A DNA stretch of 59,062 bases, filler included, from Stramenopiles sp. TOSAG23-2 (lineage: Eukaryota): assembly GCA_900128395.1 (NCBI GenBank). It is 6 parts of 6 records of this genome, joined end to end, with 100 filler letters (N's around TTAATTAATTAA, not from the genome) between each part and the next. Parts side by side here need not be neighbours in the genome. Positions count along the whole stretch, not along the records: positions 49,319 to 59,062 come from LT650083.1; 5 more parts are not named here. One strand, 5' to 3'. Each line of letters begins with the position of its first letter. Position 1 is the first letter of the stretch. This document shows positions 9,779 to 59,062 of the stretch, in pieces. Under the pieces are notes generated by a model. That model did no database searches, was not told the origin of the DNA, and saw only the letters and a list, made by a program, of their open reading frames with translations. Made by a program: the position numbers and the translations under genes.

Positions 9779-9878
9779 NNNNNNNNNNNNNNNNNNNNNN
9801 NNNNNNNNNNNNNNNNNNNNNNTTAATTAATTAANNNNNNNNNNNNNNNNNNNNNNNNNNNNNNNNNNNNNNNNNNNN
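9779..9878. other. Artificial contig spacer N44-TTAATTAATTAA-N44
   Basis: Identical 100-bp spacer occurs five times in the window. Confidence 0.98.
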
Positions 9879-19644: not shown

Positions 19645-19744
19645 NNNNNNNNNNNNNNNNNNNNNNNNNNNNNNNNNNNNNNNNNNNNTTAATTAATTAA
19701 NNNNNNNNNNNNNNNNNNNNNNNNNNNNNNNNNNNNNNNNNNNN
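19645..19744. other. Artificial contig spacer
   Basis: N44-TTAATTAATTAA-N44. Confidence 0.98.
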
Positions 19745-29509: not shown

Positions 29510-29609
29510 NNNNNNNNNNNNNNNNNNNNNNNNNNNNNNNNNNNNNNNNNNNNTTAATTAATTAANNNNNNNNNNNNNNNNNNNNNNNNNNNNNNNNNNN
29601 NNNNNNNNN
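29510..29609. other. Artificial contig spacer
   Basis: N44-TTAATTAATTAA-N44. Confidence 0.98.
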
Positions 29610-32580: not shown

Positions 32581-32946
32581 ATGGCCCAGATATTATCTGG
32601 GCTTCTTCCATTAACATCCGGTGAACAAACTAAACAAATAATAGTACCAGCAGATGATTTGGGAAGACAACTTGAAGAAATTGTAGCCGAGCATGAAAAC
32701 GATATGGTTCGAATTGATGAAAAAGTTTCTAAACATGCACAAAACATTGCTAAATTAGAAAATGATTTTTTAGCAGCAAGTGAAAAACAAGCTAAAGTGA
32801 ATGAAGTTGTCGATGAAAGACTTCAAAAGCTTGAATTAATGATACGTGTATCATTTTACACGCACACGTTTTTTTTTTCATTTCTTCGCTGGCTCAGCTG
32901 GTGGTTTAGTTTTTTTTCGTTTGATTTTGATTTTAATTCTCTTTGA
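32581..32946 (+). CDS. Short coiled-coil ORF, possibly a first exon or truncated gene; its 3' end overlaps the convergent gene
   Basis: The first about 89 codons are heptad-like (LEEIVAEHENDMVRIDEKVSKHAQNIAKLE); the remainder reads antisense to the neighbouring gene. Confidence 0.5.
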   Translation: MAQILSGLLPLTSGEQTKQIIVPADDLGRQLEEIVAEHENDMVRIDEKVSKHAQNIAKLENDFLAASEKQAKVNEVVDERLQKLELMIRVSFYTHTFFFSFLRWLSWWFSFFSFDFDFNSL

Positions 32947-35900
32947 TTTATCAGCTAAGATTTTCTTTGTTTTAATTAATGTACCAAGTGACATAGTATC
33001 AATTTTTGTTGGACTTATTACTTTAGATTTCTTTTTCCTTTTGCTTTTCATTTCATCATTTTCTGTCGCAGGTCCCTTTTTAATTGCTGAATCTTTTTTG
33101 ATAGCATTATTTTTGTCATTTCCAATGCCACCCTTATTATTATTAGTGCTAAATAAATTATTTACAAGCGCAGCTTTGTCGTTTCTTAAATCTCCTATTG
33201 TATTACGACGTTTATCATTTTTTTTTGGTGCTGCTGGACCAATCGTTGACAAACTACGGATTATTGTATCTGCAGTTTCTATATCATTTAAATTTCGAAT
33301 TGATTTTTTACGTTGAAGTTTTTGACGATGTGCCTTTTCCAATCGTAATTTCTTAGCTTGCTTTTTCATAGTTTGAAACATGATCATAAATGGTAATATT
33401 TGTTTTAAGGCATATAATGCCACTGCTGAATTGATTCCAACTAAAAATATTTCAATAAAAAGCATATACCCTTGTTGTTCTTCAACACCATCGACAGTTT
33501 TTAATATTAATCCACAATACATTGTCAACGTAATAGCAACACTTGCCATGGCAGCTAAATGTCTAATCGGCCCTTCAATATGTGGTTTATATGCCAAAAG
33601 GAAGCATAAAAAGAATAAATCAAACATGACAACAATAACTACTTGTAAATCTTTTCCTGGGAAAATTAATGCTACAATACCAGTTAAAAATAACTTTTGA
33701 AGCATTTCCCATATATCCCATAAATACGTCTCTCGGCGATAGATTGCATATAAAAAGCCAAGTCGATTTAAAACATGGCGATCATCTAAATGGTCTCGTT
33801 TTTTCCATAATTGATATGCAAAAAATGCTGGTATTCCAATTGGATATATTATAACAGCTATTATTCCATATATCAAATTATCCTTATGCTTCCCATTCCA
33901 ACATTCAATGGTAAAATCTTTAACAAGATAAGATTTTCCATCATAATATTCAGAACATCGAAAATACTCTATAGCACGACGTGATATAGGTGGATATATT
34001 AACAAGATAATCCACATGGTAAATTGCAATACACGATTTGTAAACGTATCTCGCATGGATTTTTTAAAGGACCGTCCATATTTTCGTTTATACATCATTA
34101 ATCTTATGAAATATGCAGTCGAGACTACTAGTAAAAGTAAGATTGGCATCGACATCATGGCATTGAAACTATCAAAAAAATCATATTTCACTAAACAACC
34201 AACACCTGTGACTGATATGAAATCAAAATTAAATGGGGATGTTAAGCGCAAAAAATTAAGAAAACTTTTTGGCCATGGAATCTTAAATGCACTATCTGAG
34301 ACACTTAAAATTTGAATAAAACCAATAAATGATTTCACAGCAGCGGATGCAGATTTCATAAATTGCTTCACATTTTTTATTTGTTGCCTATCAAGCATAC
34401 GTGCATTTGAGCTTTTATGATCTATAAACGTTTTTGTTGCACTTCTCCAATGTGCTTTGCTATCTTTCACATACATGGTACGGCATAGTGCAAGTAAAAA
34501 CATTGCAAATAAACCACCAAATACTAAAAAGATAACAACCCGACTTTCGTCTTTTCTGTAATGAAGGAATGGGGAAACACCGTCGGGACAGCGTATATGT
34601 TAGGATTTATTTTTTTTCACGATTTTTGTTTGGAAGAGGCGAAATTGGAAAAAAAAATCATACTTACGTTTTCGGACATACGAAACAAAATTCATCCGAT
34701 AAATAATAACCCTCACTGCAAATACCACATACTACACCGGTAAAACCGACTTCGCATCGACTTTTTACACATGTTGTATTTTTGGTACCATTAACCACCT
34801 GTACTGATGAGAAACCACCTTTACATGCACCCTTATACGGGCATTTGTAATACGTATCACTTCTCGTCCCTGCCGTCCACCAACCTTTTACCGCATAGAT
34901 TCCATCCCATTCTGCATCAATCGTTTCACAATCAGCACCAATTGGATGTGGGCAATTAATGCATTTCAATGCTCCATCATTTTCAATCTTTGCATATTGC
35001 GATGGTATTCGACGTGGATCATTGCAATGATCAATCGTCCATTCAACAAACACTGGCGAACCGTCTCGAAGACCTATATCAGAGACTGCACGTGCTTCCA
35101 AACGATGCCTTCCATACAACAAAAGTGGTGTATTTAACGTGCAAAGCGTAGAGATAGTGGTTCCAGGACATGGCAATTCTTGATATGGACCACCATCTAA
35201 TTTCCATTCAATTTTAACAACTTCAGGATTTGGCGAATAAAATTGAAATGTTGCCTTTTGCCATGCACTGAGTGTGGGAGGAGAAAAAGTGATATTTGTG
35301 GATGGTTCTGACCCAATTTCAGGTACGATTACATCTACAAATTCACCAACTAGATTTTCGCTTGCAATACCGTCATTTGTTGCATTGTATTTAGGATCTA
35401 AGCTTTGTGGAATTAATTTAATAACCATCTCTCCTCTTGGTGCACCAGACTTTGCCCTAAATTTTAATTCATAATTAATACTGTTCCAACTGTTCTTTGG
35501 AATCAATACGGTATCATTGCTATTAAAAGTTTCATCATAAATGATTTCAATTTTATTTGATGGAACTTGGACTTGAATTGTTACGTCATGTACCGGTTCA
35601 GATGCAAAACGTTCAATTGTAATGCTTTTTGCATCTTCGTCAGGTTGCAATGTTAACAACTTATTCTCCAACAAAATAACCTTAGCCGTATCATCATCTG
35701 CTGCATTGACAGCTGCCAATAAATCACGTCTCGTCGCCTTTTCATAAAATACAGGATCACTTGTAATAATATTGTGAAAAATGATGAAATCCAATAAATC
35801 ATGATCAACATGATTTGGCATAGATGAATACGTAAAACGTTGATATTGACTCCAATTTGATGGCGTGAATGTCATAAATTTTGGATGCCCGACTAATTGT

Positions 35901-38314
35901 GGCGGATTAAGTATGTTCGCACCATCAGTTAAAGTGATGTTAGGCTCCACACGCACAATTTGTGTTGGTTGCGTATCTAATCGAACACCATATTGAAACG
36001 TGCTGCCTTCTAAATTAAAAAATGATAAAAATTTAACATCATACATGTACTGATCGTTTGCATCTATTGTCCATAATTTCACATCTGCTTCATCGTCGTT
36101 AATGATGTTAACTGTAAGTACACGAGTTGGACTACTTTTATATTGTAGATCCGTTGATTTTAAGGTGTGAAGTATTTCGCACGTATATGCAATTGCATCT
36201 GTACCTTCATCAATTAAATTACCACTTGTTGCTAATATAATCAATTCTTGTGTGTTGTTACCATCGTTTGCAAGAATTGTAATATTAGAAGGGATTAAAG
36301 TGCAATGTAATCCTTCAAGAGAAGAGGTGGCTTCCAAATAAATTATAACATCTGCTGTAGGTGTCATACCGAATGTCAAACCAATGTTGTATTCAAAATT
36401 TGCATCTTCTAGAACCATCTGATTGCCTACAGGTATACCCGTAATTTCACCTTTATCAGTATCATATGTAAAGGAACTTTTAATATTTTGGTTTCTTACA
36501 ATGATCTCAATATCACGTGTTACTCCTGAAGAACCAACTCCAGTAAATTGGCATTGTAGTAATTCTGAATTTGCGGTATCTAGCTTTGGATCTGCACAGT
36601 TTATAGCACAACCATTGTCGTCGTATACTAATACGGTAATCAAGCTCATATCAGTACCAAAATCTGTCCCTGAAATTTGTATAGTTCCACCATTAAATGG
36701 CGGAGACTCTACACCTGTAATGTTTGGTAGTTTGTAAGAATATACTGCTTGTGATGATGCTGAATAAAGAGACGAGTCAATATCATTAATAATTAATTGG
36801 ACAACGATATTGCCACCAACACCTGCCGGTGAAATGGCTTCAATAGATGTTTCACTTTTATATGCAATACTAGTCCATTCCTTTCCATTTGTTTTTATGA
36901 TAATATTATTATCACTAAAACGAAATCCAGTGAATGTTGTTGCAATGCCTCCAGCTGATGTTTGGTTATTGGGACTAATATTAGAAATAAATGGTATTGG
37001 ATAACAATCGTTTTGATTGTCTTGTAGTGTTACATCGTATGGATTAGTTTGTGGTTTTGTTGTTGTATTTGTTGCACAAGGAGTGCAAGAAACAGCACCA
37101 TCATCCCCGGAATAAAATCCGGAAGCACAATCTGTACAAACGCTAACTGAAGTAGCAGCAACTTCTGCGGAGGATTTGCCTGCAACACAGGATATGCAGA
37201 CATCAGCTGAATTGGCGTCAATTTCCGTCAACGAGTATTTTCCCGCGTTGCAATCTGTACATGCGCCCATCCCAGCTGTTGCAGAATATTTTCCTGCAGC
37301 ACAATCTTGACAAACACTATCTGAAATAGCACCAATTTCTGCGGAATATTTTCCTGCATCACAAGTTTCACATATGGAAGCAGCAGGTCCTGAATAATTT
37401 CCCGCTGAACAAACTTTACAAACAGTGTGTATGTTCGCACCTACTTCCGCGGAAAATTTTCCTGCATCACAATCTATACAAGTGTCTGAATCAGCACCAG
37501 GTACTGTTAAATATTTTCCTGCAGCACAATTTGTACAAAAACTTTCTTCGTGAGCGCCTCCCTGTGAGGACCATTTTCCTGCCAAACAATCTTCACAATC
37601 ACTAGCTTTATCCGCTCCGTTTGTTGTTGAATATTTTCCTGCAGCACAATCTGTGCATGCAATTTTAGAATCTGGAGAAAATTTACCTGCATCACAAGCA
37701 GTACAATCAATCCCCCCTTCTGATGCTAATGTATCTGTAATACTACCTGCAGCACAATCTGTGCATGCAATTTTAGAATTTGGAGAAAATTTACCTGCCT
37801 CACAAGGAGAACAACTACTTCCCCCTTCTACAGTCCCAGTATCTGTAATACTACCTGCCTCACAATTCTCGCATACGTTTTCAGTTGCACCTACTTCCGC
37901 GGAATACATCCCCACACCACAAGATACACACTGTGTTGCATTGGAATTGCCCCCCCTGTATTTTCCTGCCTCACAATCTTTGCATGCAAGTGGGTCGGAT
38001 TGCTCATTGTTGTATTTACCTAGTCCACACTCCACACATTTATTATTATTGTTTATATCTTTATAGGTTCCTATTCCGCACATTTCACGACATGGAGGTA
38101 TAGGATTACCATTTGGATCTCTAGCACCACAACGTGAGACTTCATACATGAGGTACATTTCTATCTTACAACACTTGCCTGGCTGGCAGTTAGTGTCGCC
38201 ATCACAACATATTTTACAATCTGCTGGATATACCTGACCAACGCACGAACCAAAATTCCAGTAGAAGAACATCAAAAATAAAACAACACGTATTAATAAA
38301 ATGGTCATATTCAT
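32878..38314 (-). CDS. Large cell-surface receptor-like protein: signal peptide, CxxC-AGKY (GCC2/GCC3, TNFR-like) repeats, IPT/TIG and Calx-beta-like domains, multi-TM C-terminus; 2 exons (38314-34668, 34555-32878), about 1774 aa
   Basis: Many C-x2-C-x-AGK[YF]S repeats; ISNISP...GG (IPT); IINDDEA; GTAAGT donor at 34667 and CAG acceptor at 34556 join the two ORFs in frame; TM domain with IPWP, YLVKDFTIECW, YPIGIP and RLGFLYAIY. Confidence 0.88.
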
Positions 38315-39367
38315 AGTGGTGCCAAATGCTTTTATATGTGAGATAGACGATAAGATATTACTTCTGACAATAAACAAAAAAAAAATGCGCAGACTGCAAT
38401 AAAATATATTTACCAAAAACGTTACACCAGTTAATACTAATAACGAAATAAATTAATTTGTATATAGATTATTAATTTACTATTTCTCTCTTTTATTATT
38501 TTTATATTTTTATTTGTACAAGGAAGTATATGTACTGTATACTGCCAGACTGGTATAATGTACAATATAATATAATATTAATATATATAATAATAATAAT
38601 AAAAATTCCATAATAAACAGAAGACTTATATTATAATTAATTTGTTGACGTTGGTGGTAGTAGTTATAATAGTATTATATTATTATTATATACAGTATAC
38701 AGTATTAATGAAATTAATTAATAGTAATATTATATTATAGTAAGCGTGAAAATGCGAAAATGTGAAGAACATTCTTCGACTTTCGCACTTTCGGGAGTTT
38801 TTATTTTAGTTTTAGGCTCTGTCTTACACCATTATTATAAGTACGAAATATTAATAGAGTCATTGTTTTTTTGATAGGGACAAATATTTTAAAAACGATA
38901 TTTATATATACGATACAGCATTTGTACTAGAATAAATAATAATTTATACCTACTATAAAATAGATTTATTAATAATAGTAAATAGAGTTAATAAAAATGA
39001 ATACGAAGCCATTATTTAAAAATAAAAAAAGGGACGTTGTTATTATTATACAAGTAGGACCTAGATTAAGCCTGCCCGGCCTGCCTGGACAGCACCACAG
39101 CCTTTTTCTATAATACCTGGTACCTGGTACTATAGTACCTGTAAAATACCAGATTATAATTATTTGCAACAAAGAAGTGTAGTATTTTTTTTACCAGGTT
39201 AAGGTAGTAGTATAATTTCAATAATAGTAACAAGAAGCGTTATTTATTATTATTCATCATCATAATTATAATAATACAGTTGAAAATTATTATATATATT
39301 AATATGAATATGTATTAGGTAGATATCATATTTAAATTGGATCTTTGTCCAATTGAAACAAATATAT

Positions 39368-39467
39368 NNNNNNNNNNNNNNNNNNNNNNNNNNNNNNNNN
39401 NNNNNNNNNNNTTAATTAATTAANNNNNNNNNNNNNNNNNNNNNNNNNNNNNNNNNNNNNNNNNNNN
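39368..39467. other. Artificial contig spacer
   Basis: N44-TTAATTAATTAA-N44. Confidence 0.98.
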
Positions 39468-42276: not shown

Positions 42277-42845
42277 TATGACATATATGTTTTAAAGGGA
42301 AATTTCGCAGTGAAAGTATTTTTATAGTTGATGAGTGGGTGGGTGAAAGTTACTAAGGAAACCCCGCGATGTTATTCGTATATGCATTTTATGGCAGCCT
42401 CAATAGGTGATACGAATAGGTGAAAGTCATGTTGTAGAGGGAAGAAGAAAGAAGAAGAGAAGTATTACGTGGTGCGGTGGAAGTCCAAGATATTTTTGTA
42501 TATATCATATATATATATGTGCCGTTGTGTGAAAGAAACCAAGTGGAGTGCGAGTGTGTCGTCTAATAACAGTATTTTAAAACACATGAATGTCATCTAT
42601 CATCTATATACATGTGTATAAATCTACGGAATGTATATGGTTGTACGTAAAAGTAGAGTGTAACATTTTTAATGAAAAAAGGCTGCACTTTCACGTCCTT
42701 TTTTGTGTGTGTGTTTATTTAAAAAATAATAATAAATTTGAATAAATCAAACTAAAATACTACCTATTACAATATACTATATACAAAAGAAGAAAACATA
42801 TATATATATATATATATATAACAATCATATATATATGTACAAACA

Positions 42846-45003
42846 ATGACGTTAACATCATATGACTTACCATCGAAAAAAGAACAAAAAGAAAATGCAG
42901 TGAAAAAAGTCAAGAAAAAAAAATTATATGCAAAACGATTTGTACAAGCAAATTTATTTTTATTTCCATTATTATTAATTGCACCAACTGCATATCAACT
43001 TACATTGCCAGAACGAGCACCGTTGCCATATAATGCTACAGACGTGTTTGATCAACAACTAGATGAATTAAATCACTTAACAAGAACAAAAATTAATATT
43101 AAGTATTTATATGATGATAATATACAATCTAGTGAAGGCGATGATGTTAGTAGTACTTGTATCAATCGTTTAAATAATATCGATAATAAACATTTCGACG
43201 ATAATAATATAATCAATAAAAATATGAAAACAACAATATTAGATAAAAATAATATTGATTTTTTGAATGAAAATTTTAATGACAATAGTATTATTGATAC
43301 ATATTTATTGAATGATAATTTAATATATGATACAAAAGATGACGTAAATATCCCAGGAATATTTACCTTTATTTTTATCGTATTAAATAATGATGCAACA
43401 ACAAAAGATAATAATAATAATAATAAAATCATTTTAGGACAAAAACGTCATGGATGGATATTTGTATCAAAAGAACAAATGTGTTCATCTACAACTAACA
43501 ATTATCAAACGGAGATCATGAACAAACTACATGATCATTTATCAAATCCTGGACAACATTTACCAAATGGTATTGAGATTATATATCCATCATACCATGT
43601 AACATTGTCATTATTAGTTGAAAATCCAGATGAAAAATTGAATTTAAAATGGAATAATGAAGAATCAAATGGTTTTATCGAAGGTTTTTTGCATCCAAGT
43701 AGTCGTATGAAACGTTTAGGTAAATTTTTCAATGTGTTAAATCAACATATCGTAAGTTGTCTCTCTACATCTCATCATTTACCAAGGAAAAACAATTATT
43801 AACCACATTTTCTATCGACACACACACACACACACACAGGCAACCTTTACAATTGATTCACAATTATTATATTATGTTAAATTAACTGGTGCATTTCGTA
43901 AAGCAATATTAAAAGGGAAAAAACAGACGAAAGACGATGAAAATGAAAAGACAAAGAAAGATAATAAGAATTACAAATTTTCATACGTACGACCAAAAGA
44001 TTTAAGACGTTTTATTAGTATGAATGATCATTTAAATTATGGTTCAGGATTATTAGGTAATTTAGCAAAAGAAGTACATTTTGCTGCATTTATACCATCA
44101 ATAAAACATAGTCCATTGACATTAGGTAAATCAAAAAGTCAAATATTAGAAAATATTATTCAAAAGAATAACAACGAAAAGGATGAAGATAAATATAATA
44201 AACAAATTATACAAACAATTCAACAACAAATGAATGGTTTTATTATACCGCGATGGGGTGGTGTTACAATTATTAATACGAAAAATCCATCCGATGAAGA
44301 TTTAAATAATGATGATTTTCAACGTTTTGAAAGTATGATATTAGCACATGCAAGATCATTATTAGGATTGAATGATCCATACAATTTTCCACCACCATCT
44401 CCGACGACGACGACTACAACAAATAATATGATACAAATAGAGCAAATCAAACCAATTGATTATGGAATTGCTGATTGGGAAATTGATGCAATTGTTAATT
44501 ATAGAATAAAACATCATGGACGAAAACTTACTGAAATGGTAAATGCAACATTAACATTAGCAACGAAAATGTCTGGATTGATTATTCATAAAGAAATTGG
44601 TGAATGTGTTAATCGTGCAGTTGATAATTTAGAACGTTGTATTAATGTATTGAATGGTAATTATAATATTGATACCAATGATCAAAATCGTCGAGATGTT
44701 GCATTTTCATGGTTACGTGATGGATTTTTAGCAGCAGAAGAAGCAAATCGTGATCCATCCATGGTAACGCAACAATATTTTCCAATGGAACAAATGTTTG
44801 CAATATTATGCCCATTGTTATTACCTATTATATTCCCAGTGATCATGGGGGTAACGGAGGCGTATAAACGTGAATGGAAACGATATAAAGGTGAAGCAGT
44901 TAGTGAATCGGATAGTGAGATGGAAAATATTTGGGAAAAATTTGCATTAAGTGAAAGTGATGATGATGAGGAGGAGGGAGATGGAAAGAAGAAGAAGGAG
45001 TGA
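42846..45003 (+). CDS. PIGS: GPI transamidase component PIG-S (Gpi17); 2 exons (42846-43751, 43840-45003), about 689 aa
   Basis: FTIDSQLLYY, HFAAFIPSIKHSPL, FIIPRWGGVTIIN, GIADWEIDAI and DPSMVTQQYFPMEQMFAILCPLLLP; an 88-nt GTAAGT..CAG intron restores the frame. Confidence 0.92.
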
Positions 45004-49218: not shown

Positions 49219-49318
49219 NNNNNNNNNNNNNNNNNNNNNNNNNNNNNNNNNNNNNNNNNNNNTTAATTAATTAANNNNNNNNNNNNNNNNNNNNNNNNNN
49301 NNNNNNNNNNNNNNNNNN
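49219..49318. other. Artificial contig spacer
   Basis: N44-TTAATTAATTAA-N44. Confidence 0.98.
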
Positions 49319-50214
49319 GGTTCAGGTTCACTAACCATGCCATTTTCATGTAATACACCAAAATATTCAACAAATTCAAAATATCTTAGTCTAGCCCTTT
49401 TGTTTTGAAAACGCTCAGGCAAAACCTTCAACATTGATTCAAGTTGAGCATGTGTCACACCGCATCCTGAACGTATTATCATAACAGGTATTTCTTGCCA
49501 AACGCTGAGTCCTCGTAAATGTGAAGTTAGGAATTCTGTTTTAAACACATCCCATTTTTTATGTATTCTTTCACGAAATCCATCAAAAGCAATATCTTGA
49601 AGTTTTAAAAGATTTTCCCGAAGCTCAGACTTTTCAAACATGCCTGTAGAAACCATACTGTTTCCTTCATTATCAGCTTCAATCAAGGGTATTTTAGAGG
49701 TTGCTTGGAGAATATTCCGCCTGAACTTCTTATTTAATATATTACCACCTAGTGGCTTTTTTCTTTTTATATGATCTTCTTCTTCTCTTTTTAAGTTCTT
49801 ATTTACATCTTTTTCATTATCTATTGTTTTATGCTGCAATTCCTCTGGATTAATAGGTGTTAATGCACCATGGCGTTGTAACTCCACTTCTCCTCCTGGT
49901 CTAAGAAAATCATTATTATTGCTATTATTATTATTATTAAAACTTGCATCCGTTTCGTTTATCGTATTAAATATTTCTTGTCTCTCCGATGAGGGCACAA
50001 AGGATGATTGATAATTATGATCTATTTCTCTGGTCCCTAAAAAACTTGGAAAAGTATCAGCAGATTCTGTCCCACGAGCGTTTGGCATCTTATACCATGG
50101 CTTTCCTTTATAACTTTGTACATTTTTTAATCTATCTTCCACTTTAGTATTATCTAATGATTTATTTATGCGACGGTAGCTATCTTCTACGGTAAAATCA
50201 TGATAAAAAGCCAT
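49319..50214 (-). CDS. 3'-truncated protein of unknown function (weak EF-hand-like segment)
   Basis: ATG-initiated frame stays open to the contig edge; RLRYFEFVEYF resembles a degenerate EF exit helix. Confidence 0.65.
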
Positions 50215-50239
50215 TAGTTAATAATAATAACAACGTCGA

Positions 50240-50272
<33 letters not shown>

Positions 50273-50778
50273 CGTATGTATGGCAGGATAGACAAAATTC
50301 TATATTTAAAATCAACGAATTATCGTCAATAATTATGATAATTCTTAAAAGCACAATATCTGGAATGCAGAATTTTACGAACCACATTGTTATATTGTTT
50401 TGTATCTTTAATATTGATTAATTTGTATAATAATGTGAAAAAAAATGACCCAACCAACGTTATTGTATAATAAAAAGATGCACGATTTCTAAAGCTAAAG
50501 TAATGATGTGCTGATGATACTATATTACTATGGAAATAGTACAGAAGAAAATTTCATAAATGGTGATTAAGGGTAAATTTATTGTATTATAATTTATTTT
50601 TAATTTTATCTTTTTAGCAGTTCCATATATATATACATACATATACATACGTTCCAGTAGGTTGAACAACTTTTCCCTAGCACTTGTTGTTTTCCACTTG
50701 CATACTTCATCACCAAGATATATTAATTATCATTGTTGCATAAATCCCCTTTCATATTTAATGTAAATTTATCATAAT

Positions 50779-53700
50779 TTATTCTATTCGTTTCGCAGAA
50801 ATATCATCTGTATCTAAAGTTACTGCTGAATTTGAATTCATTGGATTTTCAATCGTAATCGAAGTCATTTCAATGGATTTTTCATCATCGGGACTAGATC
50901 TACCTTCTACCACCGGATTTTTACTATCTACTACTTCGTCTCCAACATCATTGTTATCATCATTACCATCGCTTACACCTCCCAACAAAGCTTCACTTTC
51001 CCTCTGTTTCAATTGACTCATCATACCTAAAAATTGAGGGAAAGATAATTCATTTTTATCTTCATTTCCAATTAACTTGTAAATTTCGTCCAACGATTGT
51101 TCATCTTGACCGATATAATGCAAAGCCCGCCTCATTTCATCTTCATCTATCGTGCCGCTCTTGTCTTCATCTATTATTTCGAAAACCTGTTTATATTTAT
51201 CAATAGTCCCCCCTGCCATTATTTTTTTGTACTCATCAATGATTGACTTCTCCGCCTCCTCCTTTTCTTTTTCTTTCTTTTGCTCGCTTTGTGCTTCCTC
51301 CATAGCGGTTGTAATAACACCAATAAACAAGGTCATTAAAACAAGAGCGCCGATGACTGTAAAAAAGAAGAAGAAAACGGCACCAGCCCATTCATAAAAT
51401 ATGGCATTGCCTGGGTCTCCATAAATTTCATCTGTCAATTCTCTACAACAGCAATACATCTCATGTATTATTCTCGTGTCACTGACATTTTTGTATCTGT
51501 CATAACAGCTACCTAGGGGACCGGTAGTATTTAGCAACACGTTATCAAAGCCTATATCTTCGCACATTACAAAATGCCCGTAATTAGCACAGCCATACAT
51601 ATTGGTATACATAATATCAGTCCAATCCTCTAACGTCGACGCTCGAAACAAACTATAAATTGCATTTGGTAACGTTCCAAAATGCCAAGGATCATTTGGC
51701 AGGAAAAGAATCTGGAAGAATATACCCATCGCGAAAAAGAATAACATTAAAATCATAGCAACGTAACTAATTGAACTCAAACCTGAAAGCAGTGCTTCGA
51801 CAATAACTTGCAATTGTGGGAATGCCTTTAAAAGTTTCAATACTCGTAGAAGACGCAAAAGCCTTAAAATGACAAGCATTCCACCACCCTCACCCGTAGG
51901 AAGTAAAGATCCAACAACAATCACAAAATCAAAATTATTCCATCCATCAATTCCGTTATTATAGAAATATCTAAATGGTTTATCAAATTCTGCTACAACT
52001 TTAATAACCACTTCTGCGGTAAATATAATTAAAATCAAGATCTCTAAAAGATTCATAAATAATATAAATGGTGCTTGAATTATACAATCAGCGTGACAGT
52101 CAAGGTATACTTCATGCTCCATGACACAATCAATGTCTTTCGAGCCTGGTAGTGTATTATGACTTTTGTAATCTAATGTAGTATTTGGAATCCGCAAGGT
52201 TTCCTCTGGATATGTACAACCTGGTCTACAAGTAGCAAATCGAGGGTCATCATCATTTGTTTCCATACCAATTCCAACCATTAAACCAGCAATAATAATA
52301 ACTACAGTAATAAAATTTGTGAAGCCTGGCGTGTCGTGGGCAATATACTTAGCCAATCGCGATAATTCATAATATTTATAGCAAAGACAGCCTTTTTTCT
52401 TAGCCTCTTCACCTTTGTAATCTATAAGCTTATCCATTGCGGACTCGTCCCACGCGTTTTGAAGCAAATTTTTGGCCTCTTTTTCTTGTAGACTTTGTTC
52501 TTGTTTCAATTCACGTTCGATTTCTGAAGCTTCTCGTTTGAAACTTCTAGAAGTTAATCTTCGAGCTTTGCCTTCGCTTGCTCTTTGATTTTCTCGTTTT
52601 AGCCTCGCCTCTTCTTTTTTTTTTTCACGTTTTTTTTTCTGCGCCTCTCGTTTCAAGTAAGCCTTAATCATCTTATCATTTGATTGTTCCGTTTTCATTT
52701 CTTCCATACTTTCTGTCATAGCCATTGTGACGGCACCTATGAATAAAGAAAGCATAACTAATGCAGATATTAAAATAAATGCTATCCAATATCCCATACC
52801 CAGCCAACCGACAGGACCGGGCGAACCGACCAGATCATTTACTCCCGTTTGATATCCATAAACCCCAAGTGTCCAATCATTGCCCTTAAAAACTACTCGC
52901 TCGCCTCTACTAACCGCATGTGTCCCATTCCATCTCCAAATTTCTCTTTTAAGTTGGGGATCATATCGTGAGTGACAAGTAACTGGACAACCATCAGACC
53001 AATAAAGCCCAGAACGTTGAATTGGATCAGGTTGATTTGGGTGCTTTGGTTGATTTGGATCATAAAGTTTATATGGTTGATTTGGATCATAAGTGTTATA
53101 TATTTGATTTGGATCATCAAGGTGATAGATACCACTGTCATAATACGGACTATCACAACCAAAGTAGTTGATGTACTTAATATCCGTCCAATCTTCTAAT
53201 GTAGATGCCCTGAAAAGTGACATCAATGATCGCGATAAAGTACCAAAATGCCATGGATCGTTTTCCCCAAACAACATATTTCCTATGATGCCAAAAAGGT
53301 ACAGGACTATCGCTAATAACAGCATAATATATGCAATTGACACCATGCCACCTACCAATCCCATAATAATCATTTGCAAAGCAGGAATTTTTTTGATTAG
53401 TTTCGCTAATCTAGCCAAACGGACCAAACGCAATAACTTTACTGCACCACCACCTGCCATACCAGGAATTGGCAAAGATAGAATTACAATGATAAAGTCA
53501 AAGTTATTCCATTTCCACTCTGGTCCAAGCCAATATCTATCTGGCCGAGCACCTTCCGCTAGTACTTTTGCTACTACTTCGAAAATAAATATTATCATAA
53601 TAACAGTTTCACATACACGTACAACCAATAAATTTTCGCAATATCTATCTGTTTGAAATCCAACAACAATACCAGCTAACATAATTATCACGATAATAAA

Positions 53701-53946
53701 ATTGTTAAACTTGTCCGATTCAGTCAAATTTTGCATAGGGTTTGCAACTTTTTCGATCCAAGTTTTGCCACATCCGGTAAAATTGTTAGGATCTTGCGCC
53801 GGTTGACGATGAACTATCTTGTCTTCTTCTGCTTCCCTTTTCCTATCTTCTATCATTTTTATTATATCCTCATCCGTCATCCCTGCTTCCCTTGCCAGTG
53901 CCTCTGCACGGACTTTCTTTGCTGCTATAATTGCTGCTGCAGCCAT
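50779..53946 (-). CDS. Two-domain (2x6TM) voltage-gated cation channel with C-terminal EF-hands
   Basis: Two WNNFDF S3 motifs; two S4 segments (KLLRLVRLARLAKLIKK and LRLLRLLRVLKLLK); two LFRASTLEDWTDI pore loops; DEDKSGTIDEDE EF-hand. Confidence 0.93.
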   Translation of the reverse strand: MAAAAIIAAKKVRAEALAREAGMTDEDIIKMIEDRKREAEEDKIVHRQPAQDPNNFTGCGKTWIEKVANPMQNLTESDKFNNFIIVIIMLAGIVVGFQTDRYCENLLVVRVCETVIMIIFIFEVVAKVLAEGARPDRYWLGPEWKWNNFDFIIVILSLPIPGMAGGGAVKLLRLVRLARLAKLIKKIPALQMIIMGLVGGMVSIAYIMLLLAIVLYLFGIIGNMLFGENDPWHFGTLSRSLMSLFRASTLEDWTDIKYINYFGCDSPYYDSGIYHLDDPNQIYNTYDPNQPYKLYDPNQPKHPNQPDPIQRSGLYWSDGCPVTCHSRYDPQLKREIWRWNGTHAVSRGERVVFKGNDWTLGVYGYQTGVNDLVGSPGPVGWLGMGYWIAFILISALVMLSLFIGAVTMAMTESMEEMKTEQSNDKMIKAYLKREAQKKKREKKKEEARLKRENQRASEGKARRLTSRSFKREASEIERELKQEQSLQEKEAKNLLQNAWDESAMDKLIDYKGEEAKKKGCLCYKYYELSRLAKYIAHDTPGFTNFITVVIIIAGLMVGIGMETNDDDPRFATCRPGCTYPEETLRIPNTTLDYKSHNTLPGSKDIDCVMEHEVYLDCHADCIIQAPFILFMNLLEILILIIFTAEVVIKVVAEFDKPFRYFYNNGIDGWNNFDFVIVVGSLLPTGEGGGMLVILRLLRLLRVLKLLKAFPQLQVIVEALLSGLSSISYVAMILMLFFFAMGIFFQILFLPNDPWHFGTLPNAIYSLFRASTLEDWTDIMYTNMYGCANYGHFVMCEDIGFDNVLLNTTGPLGSCYDRYKNVSDTRIIHEMYCCCRELTDEIYGDPGNAIFYEWAGAVFFFFFTVIGALVLMTLFIGVITTAMEEAQSEQKKEKEKEEAEKSIIDEYKKIMAGGTIDKYKQVFEIIDEDKSGTIDEDEMRRALHYIGQDEQSLDEIYKLIGNEDKNELSFPQFLGMMSQLKQRESEALLGGVSDGNDDNNDVGDEVVDSKNPVVEGRSSPDDEKSIEMTSITIENPMNSNSAVTLDTDDISAKRIE

Positions 53947-55344
53947 GACGTTAATTAATATATATAACTATACAAATACTAGATAATGTATTCGCGTGTG
54001 CCACTAAGTTATGTAAATAAGTATATATATAGTTATCCAAAGAGCTAAGCTAAATATTCTGGATAAATATATGCACGTAAGTATGTATATCCTTGTATTC
54101 GTATTGTACGGATTAATAACACAAAAACACAAGAAAAATACGTATTATATGTTTTCATTTCGTGTGTGTGTGTGTGTGTGTGTCTATTTCTTTCTATGAT
54201 TGTAAAGTGTACAATAATAATAATAGACTATAATAATAATAATATCATTATTATTATTTTAATACCTGGTATTTAATAACCATCATAACTATTAGTTACT
54301 AGTCTAGTAAAATAATATGTGTTTGTGGTGATGTGACATGCTGTACTGTAGCCTTTATTATCAGTTCTAATTTTTTAAATTGTTAAAATTGTAATATGTG
54401 CATATAATCACTGATATAATATATGCAACCTATGGATGGCAATTTACAATGGATTTGTTAGATTGTGGATACTAACATACTAATACTAACTGATACTGTT
54501 ATAGTTTATACTAGTTCAAGACTGTGAAATTGCAACTAATGATTTTAGTAGACTATTCTTCTCGAATTATTTCGTCCTAGTTCGTTTTCCAGTTTACAAT
54601 AAGTTCTTCACAGCACTACATATCATGTCAAGAGGGCACACCAGCACACAACCCAAGGTGCCAAGAGACAAAAACCACACAAATCCACCCAAATATTCAA
54701 CTATCCATAGTTACAGCATTTAAAATATAACTAATACTGTAAAAGGCAAAAAATTAAATAAAAACATTAGCCATCATCATATAAGTGGGAACAATGTGAG
54801 ACGGTAAACACTTAGTACAAGTTTATATAGGGATAATGTTGATAGGTATTTTTTTGATAGAATTGGGAGTATGAAAAAGAACTTGTTAATTTTTAAAAGC
54901 CAAAAATGTTGGAAAAAAGATGAAATGATTAAGTACGGCAATAGTATACAAAACTTCATGCCTAAGAGTTACGGAAGAAGAAAAAATAATAATTTAAATT
55001 AGTCATTATAAAAAACAGATAATAGGCAAAAATATGATTAAAGTACAACAAGTATAATACATCTAGCCAGGCCAGCCGGGAAAATCGGAAAATCATGATG
55101 TCACGGAGGAAGAAGTGGAATTGTTGAATGAAGAAGATGAAGGAAGAACAAAATGAAAAACAACTAACTAGACTATAATACAAATATTATTAATAAAAAA
55201 TAGAAAAACCCGTATATCCCATAACCTCATTTGCAAAGTACCAAGACATCCTATTGGTACAGATATTACATACGGACATACATATAACAACAACACTGTT
55301 TTTTTATTTTTAAATAAACACACGCACCGTAGAAGAAAAAGAAG

Positions 55345-58300
55345 ATGGGGGATTTCTTTTTTGATGTAGATACGACTGGTAAATTTACAAATGATGATGA
55401 TATTATTGAAGAGGAAAAGAAGTTAAGTAAACAAAATAATGTGAATTCATATCAACATTTATTATCGTCCAAATCGTCATCTAGAAGAAGTTATATCAAA
55501 AGAAAGAAGAAAAAGCCCACTATATCTGCAGCAAGCGATATATGGGGTAACGGTACATCTTCTACGAATGCAAATAACTCAGCATCAACGACAACCACTA
55601 CTACTACTACTACAGCAACAACCACTACTGCTTTCACCAATAATAATTGTAATAATAACAACTATAATTTTTTCAACCAGGAACAGCAAGACACTCAACC
55701 TAAAAAACGTTTCAAAAAAACAAGCGCCAGTGCAGCCAATGATGTTTTGGATGATTTCTTTGGTACTGTAAATTATAAAAAAAAGAAAAATGTAACAACA
55801 AAGGACAATAACTCTTCAAATGCGAACTCTATTGGTATGATGATGATGATGCCGGAAACAAATTCAACTCAAGGTTATGGTAACAGCAGGAGAAATGAAG
55901 CGCAACAAAAAAAAAATAATAATAATAAGAAAAAGCCTCTTTATAATGAAAACCACGGTCTCTTAAGAGATTTTGATGATGATAGTAGTGAAAATGATTC
56001 TGATGATGAATTTGGAAAGGATGATGGGTATTTCATTTGGCCAAAACTAAATATAAATTCTTCAAAAGTTACCCATTCAAAAAATAAGCAAATTCCTCTT
56101 CTACTTGATGATGATCCTCCTGATCATCATCCAAATTCAAATCCAATATCTTTAGCTGCTTCTGCAAATGGATTTCTTCGCGACTACCAACGAGTCGGCG
56201 TGAGATGGTTATATAGCAGATATAAAGATAATTTTGGTGGTGTCCTCGGAGATGAAATGGGTTTAGGGAAGACGGTTCAAGTTATATGCTTCATAGCTGC
56301 GATATTAGGTAAAACCCATACTATACAAGATGAAAAAAATTGGCAAAAAAGAGTAAATTTTGCAAATAAATGTTTAGATAAGAGAAAAGTCCCTAACTTT
56401 AAAAGTTTCCATTGGTTTCGTCCAATACTCGTAGTATTGCCCGCTTCATTATTGGATCAATGGAAAAGTGAATTTAATCTATGGGGTTGTTTTGACGTTC
56501 AAATTGGACGGTCTAGGACGAAGATTGCTAAATATTTAGACATGGCTAAATATGGCTTAATCGAGATTTTAGTAATGTCATATGAGCAATTAAGGACTAA
56601 TATGGATGGAATAGTTGAGATCGATTGGTCTCTTATCATATTTGATGAAGCGCATAGATTGAAATCAAAGACCAGTGCATTATCAAAACAGATACTGAGG
56701 CTTCGACATATTAAATGTAAACTTGCATTAACTGGTACACCTATGCAAAACGATATGGAAGAATTATGGTATTTCTTCAATATTATTTGTGAAAATGCAC
56801 TTGGGGGGGAAAAAGATTTTTCAGAGTTTTATCGCAGGCCCATTTTGTTAGGTCGTAAAAATAATGCTTCTAAACAGCAACTTGGGCAAGCTAGAGAGAG
56901 AACAGAAATGCTACATCAACTGATTAGTACCATGATGCTACAACGTAAGAAAGATATAATAGCGCATCAATTACCGAAGAAAGAGGAAAAAGTGGTGTTT
57001 TGTCGAATGTCTGATCTCCAACAGCGAGTGTATCAACGTGTTTTATCGTCGATTGATTTTCAAACTGTGTTAAGACGGAATGAAGAGTGTGATTGCGACA
57101 ATAGTTGCGGAAAGCGAGGAGAATGTTGCTATCAAACGGTACCAAGTCCAATAGAATTATTTGAAGAGTATTGCGATCAAAATGGCATAGCAGATGTAGA
57201 AGATGCATGGAATCATTTAGCAGATGAAGAGAAGGAACCATATGAAATCAATGGGGGTATTTTGTACCCGTACTACCACCCGCATTGGAAAACTCCACAT
57301 AAAACAGATTGTAAAAGCTGCCCGAGATGTCTCATGCTTCCATGTACATCAGTTTTAACTAAGATATCATGTCATTTAGAATTGTTAAAACCACAAAAAA
57401 AATCTCATCCAAATGAGCAAGAATTTCATAGAAAAGTCGCAAAGATGGCATTTCGAGGAGAAGAAGATTTAGTGGGTGGCATTAACCCTTTGTCCAACTT
57501 CATGCAATTAGCAGATGTTGAGCATTGTGGAAAAATGAGAACGTTAAATAAACTTATACCATTGTGGCAAAGGGATCAACATAAATTATTGATTTTTAGT
57601 AATTATACAAGGGTATTAGATGTTCTAGAAAGTTATTTGAAAAGCAAAGGCGCATCATTTTTGCGCTTGGATGGATCTACTAGTTCTAATTTACGACTAG
57701 GTATGTGCGATCAGTTTAATTCTGACAGTTCCATTTTTTGTTTCTTGATCTCTACGAAAGCTGGTGGTGTAGGTTTGAATTTAACAGGTGCTTCTCGTGT
57801 TGTTATATTTGACCCAGATTGGAACCCAGCAAATGATTTACAAGCACAAGATCGTGCATTTCGTATTGGTCAAAAGCAAGATGTACGCGTATATCGTTTG
57901 ATTTCATCCGGTTCAATTGAAGAAATGAAATATATAAGGCAAATGTATAAAACGCAAGTGAATAATACAGTCTTGAACGAAACCATTGAAATGAGGTATT
58001 TTGACGGCGTGGCCAAAGATTCTACGCAAAAAGGAGACATTTTTGGGATTGAAAATTTATGGAAATTAGATCCAAATGGCCATATGAAAACCTTTTTAAA
58101 GAAAACTTCGAAGAGACGAAAGAAAAGGAATAGATCAAACGATGGGGAATCGTCATCAATAACCGCAACTTCTAGCAACGACGTTGAAAGTGATACTTTT
58201 AATGACCCAGATTTTGAAATTGCTGATGACATGGTATCATCGAAAGCATTAGCGTCAAAGAAAAATAGCAATAATACTATTACCAATAATGGTGGTGACA

Positions 58301-59062
58301 ATAATAGCAATGAAATCAATGAGTTGAATAAAATTGGTGGCATAGGAGCTACCGATAGTACCATGGCAAATAGGAATAGCGTAGATGGTGAAAAAAAGAC
58401 AAGTGAGCTAAACAACGATGAATCAACATCCACCGTAGATGATGGTGATCTTGACACAGCATTTTCTAGTACTGATTTATTTGGTGCAAATGAAAAGGAA
58501 AGAAATTATGTACGTCGTGCAAGAGAAGATTTTGAAAATGGTCTACTAAAACAAGATACAAATGGTGGTTTTGGTTTGTCTTCCAACAATAATTTTGGAA
58601 ATTCACATGGTTTCACTAATAATAATAATGATAGTAAGATGGATATAGTAAATTTCTCTGATGAGGATGATGATGGCAATTCAGAATATTTTATAAACGA
58701 AAATACCCCAAAAAAATCCACTGAATTAAATCAAGGTGCTGCAAAAAATATAGCTAACTTTGAGAAGAAACAAGCCAGGAAAGCATTAAAAACTCGTAAA
58801 CGTAGGAATAGATCAAAAGGAAAGAAAGAAATAACTTCTTCAACTGATTCTACGACTACTTCGACTACTGCTACCACAGCTATTTCAAATGTTGCAACAA
58901 CATCAAATAATAGTGGACCAGAAATTCATAGTGAAAATACTGAAGGAAGCACAACTGCGCTTGTCGATTCTATTAAAGATTTATCAGAAAAATTTAACGG
59001 TGATGTTAAATTGATGGCGGAGTATATTAGAAAAAAATGTTCACAAGGGAAGAAAACTTAAA
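55345..59062 (+). CDS. SNF2-family ATPase, ERCC6L2/Rad26L (plant SWI2)-like; 3'-truncated
   Basis: LRDYQ, LGDEMGLGKTVQ, DEAH, LTGTPMQN, FLISTKAGGVGLNLTGA and DWNPANDLQAQDRAFRIGQ; Cys-rich insert with SCPRCLMLPC...ISCHLELLKP typical of the subfamily; no stop before the window end. Confidence 0.92.

Follow-up and report, generated by a model that had tools for sequence, protein, structure and literature searches.

A predicted two-repeat voltage-gated cation channel of Stramenopiles sp. TOSAG23-2 related to bacterial TLEDWTD-type channels

The window, i.e., the whole stretch of DNA analysed (59,062 nucleotides; assembly GCA_900128395.1), carries a complete gene (P0001; 50779..53946, minus strand) for a predicted two-repeat voltage-gated cation channel, and in per-repeat trees both repeats are placed with bacterial TLEDWTD (AnclNav/NavPp-type) channels, either inside their clade or beside it. 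The explanation that we regard as probable is that a single-domain channel of this bacterial group underwent a tandem duplication, at an early point of stramenopile history or already before it, and that the product gained a C-terminal EF-hand pair; in one branch the whole A-B-EF gene would then have doubled, independently of Cav/Nav channels, into an A-B-(EF)-A-B-(EF) form. In the channel described here, two subunits would pair into one A-B-A-B cation pore, which would open when depolarisation shifts both charged S4 helices. Its role may lie, as a guess, in the plasma-membrane excitability of flagellated cells.

Localization and general features of the channel gene

The window is composed of six pieces of approximately 9.8 kb separated by N spacers, so the true neighbourhood of the channel gene is limited to positions 49319-59062 (contig G000:C2249). 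As proposed in the first-pass annotation, the gene is a single uninterrupted ORF (one exon, 1055 aa) running from ATG to TAA with zero internal stops; an in-frame stop is located 21 nt 5' of the start codon. The upstream, head-to-head neighbour (55345..59061, plus strand; ORF and Pfam) encodes an SNF2-type helicase, so that the contig holds no additional channel repeat on that side. The downstream ORF (49319..50214, minus strand), cut by the contig end, has no Pfam match and is not a channel repeat. Neighbouring genes are eukaryotic on this contig and on the contigs of the relatives. A search of the source genome, which also carries separate TPCs and Cav-type channels, revealed no second locus of the two-repeat family.

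RNA contigs from four studies cover the ORF (three runs listed with no shared words were left out). No supported intron joint was found among the covering contigs, two joints of low depth that extended over 22-24 letters on one of their sides not being counted as introns, and none of the contigs spans the entire ORF. Their ends (50656 and 54131-54151) abut masked repeats and are therefore not read as transcript ends.

Architecture of the predicted protein

Two Pfam Ion_trans domains (PF00520; E 2e-67) and EF-hand families were recognised in the protein. In the AlphaFold2 model (pLDDT 74, pTM 0.74), two repeats of six helices each are present, S6 continues as a long helix that enters the linker, and aa 914-989 form a helix-loop-helix pair. 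All of the following features are encoded on the minus strand. Repeat A (S1-S6, approximately aa 78-415; 52702..53715), delimited by Pfam, hydropathy, the model and the trees, has an S4 segment (K170-K186; 53389..53439) with six charges, one at every third position (K170, R173, R176, R179, K182 and K185), and the selectivity filter TLEDWTD (aa 249-255; 53182..53202). In the alignment, P2 and S6 of this repeat are separated by a long extracellular/luminal loop (aa 264-380; 52807..53157), modelled with low to moderate pLDDT, in which Cys264 and Cys324 are invariant across the family. A charged helical linker (aa 416-538; 52333..52701), without an EF-hand according to Pfam and the model, leads to repeat B (S1-S6, approximately aa 540-885; 51292..52329; Pfam, hydropathy, model and tree), whose S4 (R695-K707; 51826..51864) bears five charges (R695, R698, R701, K704 and K707) and whose filter is again TLEDWTD (aa 771-777; 51616..51636). 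A degenerate DNA pattern for this motif has 2 matches in the window and 0 in 100 shuffles.

The C-terminal EF-hand pair (aa 914-989; 50980..51207) was defined by Pfam, the model and the loop residues. Loop 1 (aa 926-937; 51136-51171) is canonical and loop 2 (aa 960-971; 51034-51069) is degenerate, lacking ligands at positions 1, 5 and 12. The acidic C-terminal tail (aa 991-1055; 50782..50976; pLDDT <50) is probably disordered. The two 6TM repeats, the charged S4 segments and the charged helical linker named in the first-pass annotation are thus all recovered, and its TLEDW sites are exact (aa 249-253, 53188-53202; aa 771-775, 51622-51636); its C-terminal EF-hands hold as a pair of which only the first loop is canonical.

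With a 6TM unit and a P-loop in each repeat and R/K at every third S4 residue, the protein is predicted to belong to the voltage-gated 6TM cation channel superfamily. The best 50 Foldseek matches of the model are all Nav/Cav chains, with a whole-chain TM of only ~0.2, and whole-chain comparison was of no help for family assignment.

The two-repeat family and its bacterial relatives

The closest relatives of the channel are two-repeat proteins of 913-1040 aa. The family is widespread, and its named members come from stramenopiles (oomycetes, Hondaea, Parmales, Heterosigma and others) and from one Picozoa single-cell genome. In databases, proteins of the family go under the names of sodium channel or L-type calcium channel subunits, or are listed as hypothetical proteins. 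C-terminal EF loops are present in 116 of 133 family proteins, a canonical EF loop ahead of the end of repeat 2 in only two. In some members the filters have begun to diverge between the repeats (TGDDW, TMDGW, TLDAW). An earlier description of the family was not found in the literature searched. Motif searches of supplementary files gave no matches for family or filter motifs in PMC5824947, for two filter motifs in PMC4820453, or for family motifs across 12 of the 19 files of PMC7041947, negatives that are weak because the files may not hold sequences. Three family motifs had no match in the one text supplement of PMC11085791. In the Helliwell supplements, covered up to 400 characters per cell, the single TLEDW match is a Karenia single-domain channel lacking the family motifs. 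A viral scan yielded one BacNav-like locus, not relevant to the family.

Over 240 core columns, repeats A and B share on average 38 and 42% identity, respectively, with 28 bacterial TLEDWTD-type channels; the corresponding values are 29% for eight plasmid BacNavs, 22-27% for canonical four-domain repeats and 15-19% for TPC repeats. Two pore-flanking motifs, picked after the sequences had been seen, occur in 76/84 and 73/84 family repeats and in 27/28 and 24/28 bacterial channels; among 72 repeats from TPCs, Cav/Nav channels and plasmid BacNavs, none has them. Nannocystaceae channels match the NavPp filter and carry a hinge Thr at 228-232; judged from these channels, NavPp probably lies within the sister group of the family.

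Phylogeny of the individual repeats

The main tree (65 repeats; plain IQ-TREE, SH-aLRT/UFBoot supports) took in TPC, Cav/Nav and bacterial sequences, leaving out EukCat, CatSper, NavPp/CavMr and named TPCR. The TPC set comprised 4-10 proteins, from this genome or unnamed, one of them checked against the PDB. Also left out were P0012, apparently an A-B/A-B chimera from a transcript assembly, and four incomplete proteins of the four-repeat type (P0039, P0089, P0128 and P0129); P0130, entered as a two-repeat protein, turned out to be half of a four-repeat one. The family formed a single clade (99.9/100), which was joined by 12 bacterial TLEDWTD-type channels (91/99; 96 under a site-mixture model). 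Within it, repeat A grouped with DI and DIII of the four-repeat relatives (98/100) and repeat B with DII and DIV (95/94). The tree shape was the same under the site-mixture model and with 184 repeats; in the latter tree P0143 (Picozoa) and P0145 did not sort cleanly into A and then B.

The constrained trees for topology tests came from fast searches, in which a control lost 11 log-likelihood units. The AU test rejected TPC membership (p=8e-5; p=5e-4 for another TPC joining), which together with the per-repeat trees upholds the earlier view that the channel is not a TPC. A duplication specific to this gene was also rejected (p=2e-4). On these grounds the tandem duplication is ancient and family-wide: the independent duplication of a single-domain channel suggested by the first-pass annotation stands, but not as this gene's own event. 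A grouping of the family with TPC and Cav/Nav to the exclusion of bacteria was narrowly rejected by the AU test (p=0.035) and not by the SH test (0.28), and monophyly of the bacterial group without the family was not rejected (AU p=0.21); the tests are thus compatible with a nested or a sister position and with either direction of any transfer.

Four-repeat relatives and a second 1-2-4 series

Seven complete proteins with four repeats, drawn from two source collections, have the repeat order A-B-A-B, and their repeats pair as DI+DIII (97/100) and DII+DIV (84/88) in the 65-repeat tree. EF remnants follow DII in 4/7 and DIV in 6/7 of them, and both in 4/7. These forms are known from database proteins alone; in a metagenome scan with a four-repeat query, the 80 loci kept of 426 all had one or two repeats, and no GPHH domain (PF16905) is listed for four-repeat members. 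Grouping of the four-repeat members with canonical Cav/Nav repeats was rejected (AU p=2e-4). The A-B-A-B order, the EF remnants and this rejection together argue for a second, independent 1-2-4 series. The channel described here would be the two-repeat stage of that separate series; the 1-to-2-to-4 intermediate envisaged in the first-pass annotation survives in this form, not as a step towards Cav/Nav. We think it fairly likely that early stramenopiles acquired a bacterial NavPp-type channel, which doubled into the two-repeat family with EF-hands and then doubled again into four-repeat channels whose domains do not share their descent with those of Cav/Nav, the 1-2-4 path having thereby been run twice in the eukaryotic Na+/Ca2+ branch.

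The 1-2-4 origin of Cav/Nav has been inferred from very distant relatives, the TPCs sharing ~15-25% identity. In the lineage described here, single, double and quadruple forms coexist at ~35-45% mutual identity, and the steps toward an asymmetric pore are open to direct recording and mutagenesis. If the proposed history is true, this is a living series for studying pore asymmetry, ion selectivity and inactivation after domain fusion. The family may also take part in the electrical and Ca2+ signalling of stramenopiles at large, among them oomycetes, labyrinthulids, Parmales and raphidophytes, and has been overlooked as a candidate for it.

Ion selectivity and regulation

The first-pass annotation took the acidic ring of a dimer as a sign of Ca2+ permeability. 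This reading is weakened by NavPp, whose native filter is the same TLEDWTD and which is Na+-preferring (PCa/PNa 0.31) and Ca2+-blocked (PMC7041947); an acidic ring therefore does not imply Ca2+ selectivity. By analogy, we lean slightly towards E/D/D rings that would carry a cation current favouring Na+ or showing weak selectivity, would let in some Ca2+ and would be blocked by Ca2+ from outside. The main competing interpretation keeps the same ancestry and predicts a strictly Ca2+-selective, Ca2+-regulated channel, in which the E/D rings of the dimer would pass Ca2+ as in CavAb/Cav and the EF module would provide feedback. It draws on the high-field site, which in 112/116 two-repeat matches is acidic in both repeats, on the prevalence of C-terminal EF loops in the family, and on Gly at filter position 4 of repeat B in oomycete members (TMDGWSD), a position that has been linked with the Ca2+ selectivity of CavMr. 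TLEDWSD and TLEDWAD filters, moreover, turn NavAb and NaChBac Ca2+-selective, but the same mutants of NavPp, which has the exact filter and probably belongs to the sister group, remain non-Ca2+-selective (PMC7041947). The filter by itself does not reveal which ion is selected, given that comparable acidic filters make engineered NavAb and NaChBac select Ca2+, and this counts against our own reading. Against the competing one stand the NavPp data and the degenerate second EF loop of this gene, and we consider strict Ca2+ selectivity the distinctly less probable outcome. That cytosolic Ca2+ acting on the EF module, with its one intact loop, tunes gating of this channel is an evenly balanced prediction.

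Alternative origins

An origin by dimeric fusion of one eukaryotic single-domain channel (EukCat/CatSper type), or in an ancient eukaryotic lineage that donated the gene to bacteria, either of which would dispense with a bacterial source, seems unlikely. EukCats do occur in stramenopiles, the TLDAWSD filter of some family members resembles TLDAWAD of EukCatA, and the tree root is uncertain. Against this, of 304 short matches the best 120 comprise 47 bacterial-type proteins of 294-323 aa and 73 that score closer to the family profile; none of the 19 short matches examined in full is a complete eukaryotic single-repeat channel; three EukCat sequences, inspected by eye, lack both family motifs; and the bacterial TLEDWTD group spans many phyla.

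We regard it as very improbable that the protein is a divergent TPC, TPCR or diatom TPCL whose filters have become acidic and whose EF-hands have moved. Such a protein would likewise combine two 6TM repeats with EF-hands, a summary in PMC4278181 describes TPCR as a clade of protist TPCs whose filters are Cav-like, and TPC clusters score 0.92 in the ESM Atlas, below the 0.96 of the cluster of the family itself. However, the identity to TPC repeats is low, as given above, and the TPC set of the AU tests included acidic-filter TPC-related proteins. No TPC appears among the best 60 PDB matches, whereas the genome's own TPC matches 15 TPC chains first. Stand-ins for TPCR (filters TxENY/xGExW; one cluster named Cafeteria), obtained by a representative-library search with the acidic-filter TPC-related protein of this genome as query and not themselves named TPCR, group away from the family. 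Identity with diatom TPCL was ruled out, TPCL having a VND filter and no EF-hands (PMC11085791).

That the channel is half of a four-repeat gene, through a truncated assembly or a split transcript, is least credible of all: four-repeat relatives exist, the ORF is not spanned by any single RNA contig and the contig ends lie beside masked repeats, but the ORF has a stop codon of its own as well as the in-frame stop 5' of its start, is flanked by non-channel genes, without a second family locus in the genome, is closest to proteins of two-repeat length, and falls outside the four-repeat clades.

Comparison with known channel families

TPC filters are Asn-based and asymmetric (TANY/VNNW type), and TPC EF-hands, where present, lie between the repeats. 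TPCs (plant TPC1, animal TPC1-3, protist TPCR and diatom TPCL) resemble the channel in having two 6TM repeats per chain, so it is presumably a dimer too, and plant TPC1 also has EF-hands; the channel differs in its separate ancestry, its repeats 1 and 2 not grouping with TPC DI and DII, in its symmetric acidic filters (TLEDWTD twice), in having both S4s charged, and in EF-hands placed after repeat 2. EukCats (PMC6509283) are, likewise, BacNav-like voltage-gated channels with TLxxW filters found in stramenopiles and other algae, but EukCat and CatSper chains have a single repeat, and the three EukCat sequences mentioned above, from the Helliwell supplement, are without the pore-flanking motifs.

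A precedent for independent tandem duplication in protists is given by the two-repeat Kv-like/CNBD channels of oomycetes and dinoflagellates and by four-repeat CNGK (PMC7576140), which, unlike the channel here, belong to the K+/CNBD branch and have TVGYG-type filters; no printed case in the BacNav/Cav/Nav branch was found in the literature searched. Cav, Nav and NALCN (FVCCs; PMC5824947) share the acidic E-ring and, with the four-repeat relatives, the I+III / II+IV pattern. FVCCs have four repeats per chain, whereas the channel here has two, in a closed ORF with non-channel neighbours; the four-repeat relatives themselves differ from FVCCs in that their repeats group apart and that a longer stretch separates repeat III from repeat IV.

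The nearest known system is AnclNav/NavPp (PMC7041947), with the same 6TM fold and a TLE(D/G)W(T/V)D filter, matched by both repeats of the channel, and the bacterial TLEDWTD group was nearest in all trees. AnclNav and NavPp are single-repeat homotetramers of ~300 aa without EF-hands, AnclNav being prokaryotic, whereas the channel here has fused repeats, a C-terminal EF pair and eukaryotic neighbours; compared with the bacterial channels, its post-filter loops are longer and contain Cys, and the S6 Asn is replaced by Ser/Thr. From its sequence, the two-repeat channel is probably a descendant of the AnclNav group, predicted to work like AnclNav, yet not a member of it.

Architecture and transcription of the channel gene

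The minus-strand ORF 50779-53946 (protein P0001) comprises 1055 unbroken codons and is preceded by an in-frame stop 21 nt 5' of it. Pfam analysis distinguished two Ion_trans domains and EF-hand families at aa 917-977, and the TLEDWTD pattern was matched twice in the window versus zero times across 100 shuffles. The S4 segments carry six (repeat A) and five (repeat B) charges, and the repeats share 44% identity (core columns). An AlphaFold2 model (107 relatives in the alignment; pLDDT 74) predicts two repeats of six helices each, a long linker that is also helical, and a helix-loop-helix pair in the C-terminal region. The first-pass annotation had described an uninterrupted ORF with its own start and stop, two TLEDW filters and charged S4 segments in both repeats, all of which are borne out, the filters lying where it had placed them; of the C-terminal EF-hands that it proposed, the domain families are present but only the first loop is canonical. 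The two-repeat channel is a real feature.

The gene lies on contig C2249, one of the six ~9.8-kb pieces of the window; since N spacers (9779-9878, 19645-19744, 29510-29609, 39368-39467 and 49219-49318) join these contig-sized pieces, gene order across them is meaningless. Its true neighbours are an SNF2 helicase gene (upstream, head-to-head) and an unannotated downstream ORF, and therefore the gene has no additional channel repeat next to it. A search of this genome gave 11 matches but no second locus of the family, the other matches being at 26-36%.

The stretch is present in 19 of 22 listed sequencing runs, 14 being RNA (8 studies in all). In the four runs compared (four studies), RNA contigs cover the channel ORF, and two of them run from repeat A across the linker into the first part of repeat B. 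Three of these runs show ~2% differing letters and in-frame insertions, and thus derive from a near strain. One of the four may hold DNA, with upstream intergenic DNA covered too. In a single RNA contig of run X8, one base is lost and another gained at a distance of seven bases (window 52071-52078), which reflects either a frameshift compensated locally or a misassembly.

A family of two-repeat channels

A search with the full-length protein yielded 257 matches, and the 120 listed included 115 two-repeat, one truncated, one four-repeat, two three-repeat and one chimeric-looking protein. All listed matches with a readable organism name come from stramenopiles (Triparma, Bolidomonas, Hondaea, Phaeomonas, Heterosigma, a chrysophyte, Pythium, Nothophytophthora and Phytophthora), and a Picozoa single-cell genome is the source of a more distant member. 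These relatives point to a marine stramenopile as the probable source of the window. Within 116 matches, TLEDWTD occurs twice in 47 and EDW twice in 81, while an acidic high-field residue is found in both repeats of 112. One to three canonical EF loops follow repeat 2 in 116 of the 133 proteins of the two-repeat set. The ESM Atlas holds a matching cluster of 161 members, wholly eukaryotic and bearing an automatic name only. Add-on domains in the family include PH (P0122), ubiquitin-like (P0110 and P0117) and C2 (P0143, Picozoa).

Single-repeat bacterial relatives

With repeat A as query, 304 matches were obtained among proteins 198-630 aa long; of the 120 listed, 47 (294-323 aa) are nearer to a bacterial profile and 73 to the family profile, the latter being fragment-like in 19 matches examined at full length. 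Named sources of the short bacterial-type group are Planctomycetota, Opitutales and a Rickettsiales MAG. Scanning of bacterial genomes with an alignment of this group produced at least 600 matches, and the 80 loci examined, among the matches listed, belong to Bacteroidota, Balneolota, Verrucomicrobiota, Planctomycetota, Myxococcota, Spirochaetota and others. Such channels have been named AnclNav, and NavPp of Plesiocystis has the filter TLEDWTD (PMC7041947). Plesiocystis and Enhygromyxa belong to one family, in which 16 of 61 genomes contain a strong channel match; all 16 loci examined carry TLEDWTD, and those with a placeable start have the hinge Thr at 228-232, versus T232 in NavPp. On the strength of this filter and hinge Thr in its relatives, NavPp likely belongs to the bacterial TLEDWTD group.

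Phylogenetic placement of the repeats

The 184-repeat tree (quick LG+G4) sampled 28 of the 133 two-repeat proteins and all 7 full four-repeat proteins. Also included were 11 of the 24 canonical four-domain channels, 10 of the 16 TPC-like proteins, 28 of the 89 bacterial channels of TLEDWTD type and 8 plasmid BacNavs. A 65-repeat subset was analyzed in a quick site-mixture run and, separately, with full search and bootstrap. The TPC set comprised the canonical TPCs of this genome (one PDB-checked) and acidic-filter TPC-related proteins; EukCat, CatSper, NavPp and named TPCR sequences were outside the sampling.

In all three trees the family repeats form a single clade (100; 100; 99.9/100) that adjoins or nests in the bacterial TLEDWTD group and stands apart from TPC and Cav/Nav repeats (98.5/100 in the full 65-repeat tree). 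Mean identities and two common pore-flanking motifs agree with this placement. A bacterial clade excluding the family was not rejected (AU p=0.21). Grouping of the family with eukaryotic channels was narrowly rejected by the AU test (p=0.035), the SH test being not significant. Any clade of family plus TPC (p=5e-4), a duplication private to the studied gene (p=2e-4) and TPC membership (p=8e-5) were rejected by the AU test. The earlier proposal that the channel is not a TPC is borne out. In the 184-repeat tree, the repeats of P0143 and P0145 are not sorted as A then B; these proteins may have branched off early or may stem from duplications of their own.

Four-repeat relatives

When the four-repeat protein P0016 served as query (162 matches, 120 listed), the matches listed included six further proteins with four full repeats, as well as several that are partial. 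The seven full proteins (five JGI and two EukProt entries) are known here from protein records alone. In the full 65-repeat tree, DI and DIII join repeat A (98/100) and DII and DIV join repeat B (95/94), with 97/100 for DI+DIII and 84/88 for DII+DIV. In the 184-repeat tree the seven DIII repeats make up a single clade, as do the seven DIV repeats, and the same holds for DI and for DII when the half-protein P0130 is counted. DI and DIII of one protein share only 33-46% identity, which argues against an assembly duplication. An EF-module profile matches after DII in 4 and after DIV in 6 of the 7; as this profile also matches unrelated EF-hands, position is the evidence. Domain-wise grouping with Cav/Nav was rejected (p=2e-4). 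In P0126, a cyclic-nucleotide-binding domain and EF-hands are placed between DII and DIII.

Other genes of this genome

Contig C640 carries a 1257-aa ORF (L049:1348-5118, plus strand) with four Ion_trans repeats, KCNQ/Kv channels as top PDB matches, and pore motifs LFGEFP, LSGESP, LTGDFP and LGGEWA in place of TVGYG; it looks like a further four-repeat channel belonging to the Kv branch, its filter being of a non-K+ type. Contig C2302 (L050) encodes a two-repeat channel related to TPCs, whose filters are acidic (TAENY/VGEAW) and whose long N-terminal arm bears EF-hands; its relatives include Cafeteria, and it is possibly TPCR-like. Other channel loci (L040-L048; contigs C5557, C4152, C1480, C721, C3664, C668, C1477, C1661 and C732) comprise two canonical TPCs, two divergent TPC-like proteins, two canonical four-domain Cav-type channels, one tandem Kv-like channel and two tandem CNBD channels.

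Elsewhere in the window, two overlapping ORFs (42822-45003, plus strand) share split PIG-S homology, indicating an intron or frameshift, and neighbouring minus-strand ORFs (32878-38452) with ephrin-receptor-like/TIG repeats and a TRP-like membrane domain are probably one split receptor-channel gene.

Standing of the family, predicted function and comparison with known channels

No description of the family or its four-repeat branch was found in the full-text literature searched, which included passages of PMC11085791 (TPCL), PMC6509283, PMC10120453, PMC6259924, PMC4278181, PMC8490419, PMC12839299, PMC10349818 and PMC5824947; subscription papers or FASTA supplements could hold an earlier one. 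Oomycetes are reported to have multiple CatSper and VGCC homologs (PMC4820453), so family members may have been counted under those labels. Independent tandem duplication of K+/CNBD channels (PMC7576140) makes a tandem duplication here plausible and less unique. The studied channel is one member of a widespread and apparently undescribed family, which, judging from sequence comparisons, has a source of bacterial type and a four-repeat branch of its own.

In the TPC/BacNav architecture, a two-repeat chain must pair for a four-sided pore, and upon depolarisation the charged S4 opens it. By analogy, two chains of the studied channel would pair into such a pore, opened by their charged S4 helices upon depolarisation. 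The EF module, half degenerate in the studied gene, suggests feedback by cytosolic Ca2+.

As to selectivity, the channel may well be Na+-preferring or weakly selective. NavPp passes Na+ best (PCa/PNa 0.31), is blocked by outside Ca2+ and was not turned Ca2+-selective by CavAb-type filters (PMC7041947). Ca2+ selectivity of the studied channel is a doubtful alternative, and any other outcome is improbable. Gly at filter position 4 did confer Ca2+ selectivity (PMC8677417), and the studied channel carries Asp there.
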